Source: Escherichia coli
GTDB taxonomy: Bacteria; Pseudomonadota; Gammaproteobacteria; Enterobacterales; Enterobacteriaceae
NCBI RefSeq assembly: GCF_003334305.1
Contig: NZ_QOWS01000030.1
Reading direction: 5' to 3' (one strand)
Length of the DNA stretch: 41,498 nt
In this document: positions 39,330-41,249 of the stretch, piece after piece
Layout: each line of letters begins with the position of its first letter
How positions within the stretch are numbered: the first letter of the stretch is position 1
Translations under genes and position numbers: made by a program
The notes under the pieces: generated by a model
What the model was told of the DNA's origin: nothing
Databases searched by the model: none
What the model saw: only the letters and a program-made list of their open reading frames with translations

Positions 39330-40743
39330 CTCCTTTCCTCGCTTCTTCGTACGCTGCCAGCGTTCGCAGCCTTGCCTCTTTGTGATCAACTATCGGTTGC
39401 GGATAATCCAGCTTCACACCTGCTTTCTGCGCCCACTTCCACGGCTCATGCACCGCTTTCCCTGGTACATCGCGCAGCTCCGGTAACCATCGACGAATAA
39501 ACTCGCCCTCACGGTCAAATTTCTCGCCCTGAGTTATCGGATTGAAAATACGAAAATACGGCGCAGCATCAGTACCCGTAGAAGCCGCCCACTGCCAGCC
39601 ACCGTTATTAGCTGCCAAATCACCATCAATCAGCTGCGACATGAAATATCGCTCGCCTTCGCGCCAGTCGATCAACAAATCTTTCACCAGAAAACTGGCT
39701 GTAATCATCCGTAGCCGGTTATGCATCCAGCCAGTGCTGTTAAGCTGACGCATAGCGGCATCAACAATCGGGTATCCCGTTTTGCCTTTCTGCCAGGCCT
39801 GTAAATGTGCGGGATTGCTTTGCCACTGCACACGATCCGTCCAGGCAATAAATGGACGATGTTTACACAACGAGGGGTAATACGTCATCAGATGACGGTA
39901 GAACTCGCGCCAGATCAGCTCACTAAGCCAGACACTACCGGCCCCACCGTCCAGCGCCTGCGGCTGTTCAGCCAACAAGCGATGCAAGCACTGGCGAGGC
40001 GATAACCCGCCCGTTGCCAGGCTGGCCGACAAACGGCTGGTGCCTTCCACTGCCGGAAAATCTCGTTGTTGCTCATAATCTCCGGCACCGTTCTGGCAAA
40101 ACTGGCGTAATTGCGCAATCGCCGCTTTTTCTTCCACCGGAAAATGCGCAGTATCGAAAGACTGACGAGGATAATTCAGCGTAATGGATGGCGAGGGCTC
40201 TATCGATCCGCTACTACGAACTTTTGGTGCAGCGACGCACTCCGGCATCCCTTCCCGCAGCCGTTTCAGCCAGGCATTCTTAAAAGGCGTAAAGACTTTG
40301 TACATCTCGTGATTGCCGGTCATCACCGCGCCAGGCGGCAGGATCACGCTGTCATCAAATCCTTCACACACCACGTTACGCAGCGCTCTTTCAACTTCCA
40401 CATCCCGCGCCCGCTCATTCACTTCATACTGATAGTTATAAAACAGGTGGGTAACGCTGTTTTCCGCGCACACCTGTTTAACTATTTCGACACTGGCGAC
40501 AAAGTCATCCACTTCACGGAACAATAAAGGAATACCTTTTTCCGCAAGCGCTATTTGTAGCCCATTCAGTTGAGCATTGATAAGTTCAGCCTGACGCGGC
40601 GACATGTTATGCGTCTCCCACTGGCGTGGTGTAGCGATATACAGCGCCAGCACGCGTGCAGACGAATTGCGGCAGGCGGCAGCAAGCGCGAGATTATCAT
40701 GCAGACGTAAATCCTGGCGAAACCAGACCAGATGGGTAGTCAT
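39325..40743 (-). CDS. phr: Deoxyribodipyrimidine photolyase (CPD photolyase), 472 aa
   Basis: ORF 39325..40743 minus; MTTHLVWFRQDLRLHDNLALAAACRNSSARVLALYIATPRQWETHNMSPRQ... Confidence 0.96.
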   Translation of the reverse strand: MTTHLVWFRQDLRLHDNLALAAACRNSSARVLALYIATPRQWETHNMSPRQAELINAQLNGLQIALAEKGIPLLFREVDDFVASVEIVKQVCAENSVTHLFYNYQYEVNERARDVEVERALRNVVCEGFDDSVILPPGAVMTGNHEMYKVFTPFKNAWLKRLREGMPECVAAPKVRSSGSIEPSPSITLNYPRQSFDTAHFPVEEKAAIAQLRQFCQNGAGDYEQQRDFPAVEGTSRLSASLATGGLSPRQCLHRLLAEQPQALDGGAGSVWLSELIWREFYRHLMTYYPSLCKHRPFIAWTDRVQWQSNPAHLQAWQKGKTGYPIVDAAMRQLNSTGWMHNRLRMITASFLVKDLLIDWREGERYFMSQLIDGDLAANNGGWQWAASTGTDAAPYFRIFNPITQGEKFDREGEFIRRWLPELRDVPGKAVHEPWKWAQKAGVKLDYPQPIVDHKEARLRTLAAYEEARKGA

Positions 40744-41249
40744 AAAACTCCTGAATGGCGCAAGTTAATCACACGCGGCCAAAGTTCGAAATAACGCTGC
40801 CCTGAAAGCCAGGCGTCAGGATAAAGCGCCATATAGTGTTTGATACGCATCAGCGGCGCAAGAAGCGGTTGCTCGCCACGGCGATAACTGTCGATAAGCG
40901 CAGCCAGCTGCTGGCGTTCTGTGGAATCAATATGTGGGCGAAAATAACCCTGAACGTGCATCAAAACGTTGGTGTGATCGCGCGTGTTGGCGGGGTGAGA
41001 AAGTAAAACGATTACGCGTTGGCGGTACTGGTTGTAATAGTCATCCAGATTTTGCCACCGATGAATATCAGCCACAAACGGGCCAAGTTTGCGGTATTCC
41101 GGCTGAGAATGCGCCAGAAAGACGAGTTTATAGCGGCTGTGATAATCGAGAAGCGCCCCGCGCGTTAAGCCATGTTCTTTCAGTCGATATAACTCATGAA
41201 GCGCGAAGATACGGATTAGGGTGCTGTCATCAAATCGTTGCTGATTCAT
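40740..41249 (-). CDS. ybgA: DUF1722-family protein YbgA, 169 aa, co-transcribed with phr
   Basis: ORF 40740..41249 minus; MNQQRFDDSTLIRIFALHELYRLKEHGLTRGALLDYHSRYK...; stop overlaps the phr start (ATGA). Confidence 0.9.
   Translation of the reverse strand: MNQQRFDDSTLIRIFALHELYRLKEHGLTRGALLDYHSRYKLVFLAHSQPEYRKLGPFVADIHRWQNLDDYYNQYRQRVIVLLSHPANTRDHTNVLMHVQGYFRPHIDSTERQQLAALIDSYRRGEQPLLAPLMRIKHYMALYPDAWLSGQRYFELWPRVINLRHSGVL

Follow-up and report, generated by a model that had tools for sequence, protein, structure and literature searches.

RudS proteins consist of a TudS [4Fe-4S] desulfidase fused to a DUF1722 domain (Jamontas et al., Nucleic Acids Research 2024, PMC11417400). They remove the sulfur of 4-thiouridine (s4U) from tRNA, in which s4U at position 8 (s4U8) is a base sensitive to ultraviolet A (UVA) (PMC11417400). 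TudS, also known as DUF523, is a [4Fe-4S] thiouracil desulfidase to which most DUF1722 domains are fused (PMC11417400); the fusion is found in 74% of DUF1722 members, and 21% of the Pfam family are reported to be standalone. When RudS is expressed in Escherichia coli, s4U drops 4.7- to 26-fold and the growth delay under UVA becomes shorter (PMC11417400). Docking, molecular dynamics and mutagenesis in RudS_KT assigned the DUF1722 domain to binding of the anticodon arm, and rudS is often found in light-response or photolyase operons (PMC11417400). In Shewanella, for example, ybgA-phrB-cfa lies behind an RpoE2 promoter (PMC4336711). E. coli typically has no TudS or RudS homolog and encodes a standalone DUF1722 protein, YbgA, whose overexpression left s4U content and growth on thiouracil unchanged (PMC11417400). 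The RudS authors also note that the UVA growth delay and the burst of guanosine tetraphosphate (ppGpp) are stronger in E. coli than in Enterobacter cloacae, which has an intact RudS. Here we analysed ybgA and the adjoining photolyase gene phr (phrB) in a stretch of 41,498 nucleotides of E. coli DNA (contig NZ_QOWS01000030.1), hereafter the window, and propose that ybgA is a rudS gene that has very probably lost its TudS domain. The ybgA gene, its operon, its family and its link to photolyase have already been described; new here are the positional orthology of ybgA and rudS, the loss of TudS by in-frame deletion, continued selection on the remnant and a conserved, predicted sigma-S-type promoter.

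The original prediction had named the 169-amino-acid (aa) product of the gene upstream of phr as the DUF1722 protein YbgA. This is confirmed by the open reading frame (ORF) list, by a Pfam match that covers positions 1-117 of 117 of the PF08349 model and by the NCBIfam equivalog NF007549 (346 bits, cutoff 237, covering 1-169 of 169). The ybgA-phrB DNA of the window is 100% identical to the annotated ybgA-phrB of many E. coli chromosomes, and a full-length ybgA adjoins phrB in 5423 of 5426 complete E. coli genomes. The gene, which precedes the E. coli photolyase gene, is also called orf169; older work reportedly proposed orf169 as a second photoreactivation gene. A structure prediction by AlphaFold2, proposed earlier as a follow-up, gave an all-helical model with a predicted local distance difference test score (pLDDT) of 91.7. 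The domain contains the family-invariant motif N94-x-L-x-H98-x-x-G101-Y102, and the invariant DUF1722 residues G56, N94, L96, H98, G101, I119, P132 and Q151 (YbgA numbering) are all kept; invariant columns were read from an alignment of 17 sequences with 30-65% identity to YbgA (A1), and the same columns are invariant in a further alignment (A3). An Rfam scan of positions 40600-41498 at E <= 1 returned no match. NCBI gives a single name, 'YbgA family protein', to the 169-aa protein and, in some records, to full RudS proteins of 319 aa, which hides the difference between the remnant and the complete enzyme.

Comparison with relatives showed that ybgA did not arise as a small gene in its own right but is the C-terminal half of a rudS gene that occupies the same slot in related genomes. 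In nearly all top matches of a phmmer search (1739 matches at E <= 1e-3), YbgA residues ~8-165 correspond to the C-terminus of proteins of 310-330 aa, and the nearest homologs outside Escherichia (55-64% identity) include proteins with both PF04463 (TudS) and PF08349. We collected 80 Enterobacterales loci with DUF1722 by means of a DUF1722 profile. The phr gene begins 0-60 nt after the DUF1722 gene in about 57 of the 80, and most phr-linked loci have ybfA immediately 5' of it in the same orientation, giving the order ybfA, DUF1722 gene, phr. All but 11 of the phr-linked loci encode a RudS of 314-346 aa with Cys12, Cys44 and Cys110 as well as E46, R55, S107 and S109 intact. The exceptions are Escherichia (three species-level genomes, 169 aa), four Citrobacter genomes (184 aa), Enterobacter sp. 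10-1 (162 aa), two Yersinia genomes (163-165 aa) and Budvicia aquatica (L057 4674-5468), in which a 265-aa protein has internal deletions and two of the cluster cysteines are replaced. A second RudS clade, ~50% identical (L059-L081), does not adjoin phr. Further relatives, either full-length or of 260-280 aa, have a mutated Cys triad (P0122, P0126, P0049, P0056 and P0097); together with the Budvicia protein, these appear to be pseudo-enzyme intermediates between RudS and YbgA, in which an N-terminal region of TudS length persists with replaced cluster cysteines and missing segments, and the DUF1722 part, including its C-terminal tail, is well kept.

YbgA matches residues ~152-318 of intact RudS and is 50-67% identical to the C-terminal domain (158 residues) of phr-linked RudS. 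Escherichia lacks the alignment columns that hold the Cys triad of RudS and its catalytic Glu, Arg and Ser, all of which the full-length phr-linked genes have. YbgA has no Pfam match to PF04463 (TudS/DUF523), and a tblastn search of positions 39001-41498 with three TudS-containing proteins matched the DUF1722 part only, with no TudS remnant. Being without cluster ligands and catalytic residues, YbgA cannot be a desulfidase. In the short Citrobacter form, ~17 residues from the start of TudS, MNKRIPVGIRAC, survive and lead into the junction FD[DE]STL that E. coli also has; the junctions of the Enterobacter sp. 10-1 and Yersinia short forms are different. As short and full genes have the sigma-S-type promoter, the ribosome-binding site and the start codon in common (see below), the loss was an in-frame internal deletion. 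In the Escherichia lineage, this deletion took out the whole TudS domain, ~150 codons, while sparing these ancestral signals, and it left behind a helical, basic DUF1722 protein of 169 aa. By position, ybgA is thus the ortholog of the rudS gene found in front of phr in most Enterobacterales. We hold this origin and architecture, a TudS-less ortholog of phr-linked rudS, with high confidence.

The DNA in front of the gene is shared as well. The last 40 nt 5' of the start codon are common to short and full genes, with (G/T)CTACACTT at ~35 nt and AGGAG at 5-7 nt; AGGAG stands at the matching position before full-length rudS in the upstream regions of relatives. In the window, the predicted extended -10 element TCTACACTTAC sits 36 nt 5' of the ybgA ATG and fits the sigma-S consensus KCTAYRCTTAA, for which no -35 element is required (PMC5650638, PMC3367168), at 10 of 11 positions. 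Of 62 phr-linked loci, 44 have KCTAYRCT somewhere from -80 to -20, where shuffled sequences lead one to expect 0.65; among 19 loci of the non-phr RudS paralog, 2 have it. Published work uses ybgA as an RpoS-regulated gene (PMC3306417). These data support a stationary-phase control common to rudS-phr and ybgA-phr, exerted at a predicted sigma-S-type promoter.

Further upstream, E. coli lineages diverge. K-12 and the window alike carry an rhsC-associated ISEc1 remnant inserted ~38 nt 5' of the ybgA ATG, the point at which alignable homology to Rhs-free E. coli ends; the annotated ybfD pseudogene starts near 41400, and this Rhs/ISEc1 arrangement is present in about 3937 of 5426 E. coli genomes. 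In Rhs-free E. coli, ybfA and its terminator lie directly 5' of ybgA, so the ISEc1 insertion was not the cause of the TudS truncation. The remnant displaces everything 5' of the -10 element, including the ybfA terminator, and the upstream half of the promoter therefore differs among E. coli lineages. The ybgA Shine-Dalgarno sequence might base-pair with the stretch that follows the -10 element, through a 6-bp inverted repeat, CTCCTG...CAGGAG (41255-41260 and 41270-41275, minus strand). We rejected a leader hairpin that hides this ribosome-binding site, as the structure is not conserved in other loci or genera and its energies are small; part of it may also fall 5' of the transcription start.

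At its other end, ybgA shares 4 nt with phr, as anticipated in the original prediction: the plus strand reads 'tcat' at the junction, that is ATGA on the minus strand, common to the stop codon of one gene and the start codon of the other. No terminator-like site was found between ybgA and phr in this region of the window, and the pair thus has the features of an operon, namely the same strand, overlapping stop and start codons and no intervening terminator. In an array study of E. coli O157:H7 in early stationary phase, ybgA was up by log2 2.27 and phrB by log2 2.15 (PMC2241611). The likely co-transcription fits the absence of a terminator, co-expression of ybgA and phr is supported by these published arrays, and the observation as a whole lies far beyond chance. 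YbgA and photolyase would accordingly be expected from one mRNA in stationary phase, and the overlap would make phr translation depend in part on ribosomes that finish ybgA. The features of the locus are collected in Table 1.

Table 1. Features of the ybgA-phr locus (positions in the window)
Feature	Position	Strand	Basis
phr/phrB, deoxyribodipyrimidine photolyase, 472 aa, downstream operon partner	39325..40743	minus	ORF list and RefSeq annotation of identical sequence
ATGA overlap: phr ATG (40743-40741) and ybgA TGA (40742-40740)	40740..40743	minus	read from sequence
ybgA coding sequence, ATG start, TGA stop, 169 aa	40740..41249	minus	ORF list
AGGAG Shine-Dalgarno of phr, in last ybgA codons, 4 nt 5' of phr ATG	40748..40752	minus	sequence
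DUF1722 (PF08349) domain, YbgA residues 41-158	40776..41129	minus	Pfam match, E = 1.4e-34
AGGAG Shine-Dalgarno of ybgA, 5 nt 5' of ATG	41255..41259	minus	sequence
Predicted sigma-S-type extended -10 TCTACACTTAC, core TACACT 41283-41278	41275..41285	minus	consensus match
End of rhsC-associated ISEc1/ISAs1 (ybfD) remnant, between ybfA and ybgA	41288..41498	minus	RefSeq annotation of identical DNA and alignment with Rhs-free strain

The association with photolyase extends beyond this slot. Downstream of one distant RudS (~31% identity), a photolyase gene starts after 25 nt; another clusters with genes for photolyase, BLUF, MerR, a short-chain dehydrogenase/reductase (SDR), amine oxidase, DUF1365 and cyclopropane-fatty-acid (CFA) synthase; a third has a MerR-B12 regulator in its vicinity. 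The surroundings of two distant standalone DUF1722 proteins were uninformative, with contigs too short or no photolyase nearby. Co-occurrence of DUF1722 and photolyase outside Enterobacteriaceae, which the original prediction had put forward as a check of its proposed link to light or ultraviolet physiology, is thus found in distant bacteria and in the literature (PMC11417400). The link itself is upheld by these clusters with photolyase, BLUF and MerR and by the adjacency of phr in ~57 of the 80 Enterobacterales loci. Given that ybgA is the DUF1722 half of rudS, the physiology it points to is that of tRNA and UVA (s4U8) and not DNA photoreactivation as such. The accompanying statement that YbgA has no established role stands for YbgA itself, but not for its family, since DUF1722 has been known as the tRNA-binding domain of RudS since 2024.

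We next consider selection on the remnant. The ratio of non-synonymous to synonymous divergence (dN/dS, Nei-Gojobori method) of the standalone gene was 0.095-0.159 in Escherichia, 0.086-0.108 in Citrobacter and 0.074 in Yersinia, and 0.12 among ybgA alleles within E. coli, compared with 0.009-0.074 for the DUF1722 domain of intact RudS and 0.06-0.14 for phr. The low values of the standalone genes indicate that the amino-acid sequence of YbgA is under purifying selection. Across 51 intact DUF1722 domains, 77 columns reach a conservation of at least 93%; Escherichia keeps 60 of these, all family-invariant residues included, and its changes concentrate at the C-terminal tail and at the loop matching C241-T246 of RudS_KT. 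The tail of intact RudS, PYPEALRLRYG, is decayed or truncated in every short form and kept in Budvicia, where a TudS-shaped domain remains. With an isoelectric point (pI) of 9.8, E. coli YbgA resembles the DUF1722 domain of intact RudS.

The loop is of interest as a site of tRNA contact. Using the T246M primer of RudS_KT, which encodes A-S-R-G-T-H-S-N-V, together with the alignments, we mapped the tRNA-contact loop C241-T246, with its contact residues S243, R244 and T246, to YbgA residues 86-91, with YbgA position 89 as the counterpart of R244. R244 is the DUF1722 residue whose mutation hurt RudS_KT activity most, and the equivalent Arg is present in 98% of intact enterobacterial RudS. R90, next to position 89, is retained in YbgA. 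YbgA may be pictured as a protein that still binds tRNA or another RNA non-catalytically during stationary-phase or near-UV stress; it would leave s4U8 unerased, so that E. coli would keep its s4U8 UVA sensor. In a genome-wide screen, the Keio ybgA deletion was hypersusceptible to epetraborole, an inhibitor of leucyl-tRNA synthetase (LeuRS), along with trmU, trmC and yheM, which are genes for tRNA thiolation or modification (PMC12457515). This fits a tRNA-related role and is a weak pointer to it, as an unconfirmed screen result in which polarity on phr is possible.

Several observations weigh against a retained tRNA-binding function. Purifying constraint on the short forms is relaxed about three-fold by dN/dS, and their divergence relative to Phr is 1.16 in pairs with a short form against 0.76 in intact pairs; this ~1.5 times faster divergence again indicates relaxed constraint. 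Position 89 of YbgA is Thr in the window, Pro in K-12 and Arg in the Rhs-free E. coli allele, and the R244 equivalent is Val or Pro in the Yersinia short forms. Short forms from Yersinia and Enterobacter sp. 10-1 are no longer basic (pI 6.2-6.7). Moreover, the contacts between DUF1722 and tRNA were derived by docking and molecular dynamics, the mutations that support them were made in the fused enzyme only, and overexpression of YbgA had no measured phenotype (PMC11417400). The number of independent TudS losses is also uncertain. A neighbour-joining tree places all short forms together on long branches, which may reflect long-branch attraction or a shared origin, and the count of losses consequently rests on the differing deletion end-points; by these, the short or degenerate forms fall into at least three structurally distinct types. 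Weighing both sides, we give retained tRNA binding by YbgA a chance close to, yet somewhat below, even. The complete reading, in which YbgA is a non-catalytic and probably tRNA-binding remnant of RudS made together with photolyase in stationary phase, appears to us the reasonably probable one.

An explanation that needs no function of the protein is that the ORF is only a translated leader, holding the promoter and bringing ribosomes to the phr start that it overlaps. The loss of the catalytic half, the lack of an overexpression phenotype, the relaxed constraint with a polymorphic key tRNA-contact residue and the decay or truncation, in every short form, of a C-terminal tail that is invariant in intact RudS would all be expected of such a leader, as would the truncated YbgA variants in E. 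coli sequence collections, some of which may be contig-end fragments. However, a leader would be selected against stop codons and not against amino-acid changes, whereas three lineages give dN/dS values of 0.07-0.16 and E. coli alleles give 0.12, in the range of phr itself, and all family-invariant residues are kept along with 60 of the 77 highly conserved positions. In addition, phr has a strong Shine-Dalgarno sequence of its own, and most relatives have no overlap with phr, which means that coupling is no general requirement. We therefore consider a functionless leader improbable.

About as improbable, in our judgement, is that YbgA acts as an accessory protein of photolyase, binding Phr and aiding photorepair through folding, cofactor loading or nucleic-acid targeting. 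The ATGA overlap within a single operon suits this idea, since tight translational coupling would match the amounts of YbgA and Phr, and DUF1722 genes go on adjoining phr after TudS loss in several lineages. Yet most relatives have a gap of 10-60 nt between the two genes instead of an overlap, many RudS genes are not beside phr at all, such as those of the paralog clade described above, and 74% of the family fuse DUF1722 to TudS, not to photolyase. Some database records (for example P0077) do call the protein 'photoreactivation-associated', but this name rests on position only. An AlphaFold2 model of YbgA-(GGGGS)6-Phr from a paired alignment of 22 rows had a predicted template modelling score (pTM) of 0.66, with both parts well folded and no confident docking; a YbgA-Phr complex is thus unsupported, the linker fusion being a weakly negative test judged without the predicted aligned error (PAE). 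A split RudS, in which YbgA would remove s4U in trans with a separately encoded TudS-type desulfidase, was raised as a gene-split scenario by the RudS authors (PMC11417400) and could appeal to the TudS-containing gene in ~1.3% of complete E. coli genomes, but it is largely refuted for E. coli and very improbable, as typical strains have no TudS or RudS homolog (PMC11417400), the TudS genes of the 70 genomes among 5426 are complete mobile RudS fusions that need no partner, the locus holds no TudS remnant and YbgA overexpression did not lower s4U (PMC11417400).

Orthology with rudS turns ybgA, long annotated without function in front of phr, into a set of specific questions, mainly for those who study tRNA modification and near-UV physiology. 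The loss of TudS from a rudS ortholog helps to explain why the UVA growth delay and ppGpp burst are stronger in E. coli than in Enterobacter cloacae. That the Fe-S domain was lost repeatedly and DUF1722 kept suggests a role of DUF1722 beyond bringing TudS to tRNA, a point of importance for the understanding of tRNA-modification erasers. More speculatively, and on balance rather unlikely, DUF1722 might have an activity of its own, independent of the desulfidase, for example as a tRNA 'reader' that shields, sorts or stabilizes tRNAs under UVA or stationary-phase stress. It is similarly speculative that enteric lineages have repeatedly shed an oxygen-sensitive Fe-S eraser domain while keeping the DUF1722 activity and the s4U8 UVA sensor. 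If true, a reader activity would account for orf169 having stayed attached to phr, and YbgA would be the first tRNA-modification eraser to have turned into a non-catalytic tRNA-binding protein.

Some observations on the distribution of these alleles stand apart from the question of function. Closely related Citrobacter genomes differ in this slot, with the 184-aa form in some (L004, L006) and an intact RudS of 318 aa in others (L007, L018), whereas phr is equally similar in both types (~80% identity to E. coli Phr). A junction, FD[DE]STL, and a tail, FELWP, are common to the short forms of Citrobacter and Escherichia, which suggests that the two share a deletion allele, which may have moved between lineages or persisted as a polymorphism. 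Within E. coli, the window allele and the Rhs-free strain allele differ by a synonymous divergence (dS) of 0.27-0.29 at ybgA/phr (39325-41249 against L082 and L083), about as deep as the divergence of E. coli from E. albertii at this locus (0.27-0.33), and ybgA nucleotide identity goes down to about 93% in about 1300 E. coli genomes; this suggests an ancient polymorphism, or import by recombination near rhsC/kdp. Of the 5426 complete E. coli genomes, 70 encode a full-length RudS of 319 aa with TudS and DUF1722. Its gene is mainly borne by large plasmids (58 places) or lies in an integrase-flanked island, and always comes directly after a DUF3833 gene and near IS elements; examples are plasmid p027_SK3a (L090 5952-6911) and the chromosome of strain ET479 (L091 5952-6911). 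A few E. coli strains have thus re-acquired an s4U eraser horizontally. In the window, ybgI, a 247-aa ORF at 36788-37531 (minus strand), lies two genes away beyond dtpD; its RefSeq name, 'radiation resistance protein YbgI', makes it a second radiation-related gene close to phr.

Set beside the known systems, YbgA is most like the phr-linked RudS of Citrobacter, Enterobacter, Pantoea and Serratia. The genes share the slot between ybfA and phr, the -10-like element, the Shine-Dalgarno sequence and the start codon, and the proteins share the invariant DUF1722 residues, the helical fold, the basic pI and photolyase-linked expression. YbgA differs in that the whole TudS domain is missing (~150 residues, among them the three cluster cysteines and the catalytic Glu, Arg and Ser), so that desulfidase activity is impossible and none was seen experimentally (PMC11417400); in its decayed PYPEALRLRYG tail and variable R244 equivalent; and in the overlap of its stop codon with the phr start, where RudS relatives have a gap of 10-60 nt. 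Other standalone DUF1722 proteins are likewise single-domain proteins of ~160-190 aa, and for the standalone forms of Escherichia, Citrobacter, Yersinia and Enterobacter we trace the origin to deletion within a phr-linked rudS. Pseudoenzymes and domain remnants offer a parallel in which the catalytic part is lost, purifying selection preserves the binding part and the context of expression stays as it was; for YbgA this is a likeness by analogy and not by family, and the binding by the remnant is putative. Finally, the light operons that combine photolyase and RudS, under LitR/MerR-B12 in Pseudomonas and RpoE2 in Shewanella (PMC4336711), resemble the E. coli locus in that a DUF1722 gene is co-regulated with photolyase. 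Unlike these operons, the loci of E. coli and its relatives have no LitR, BLUF or MerR neighbour, and control of ybgA-phr in E. coli appears to be of the sigma-S type, linked to stationary phase and not to light.

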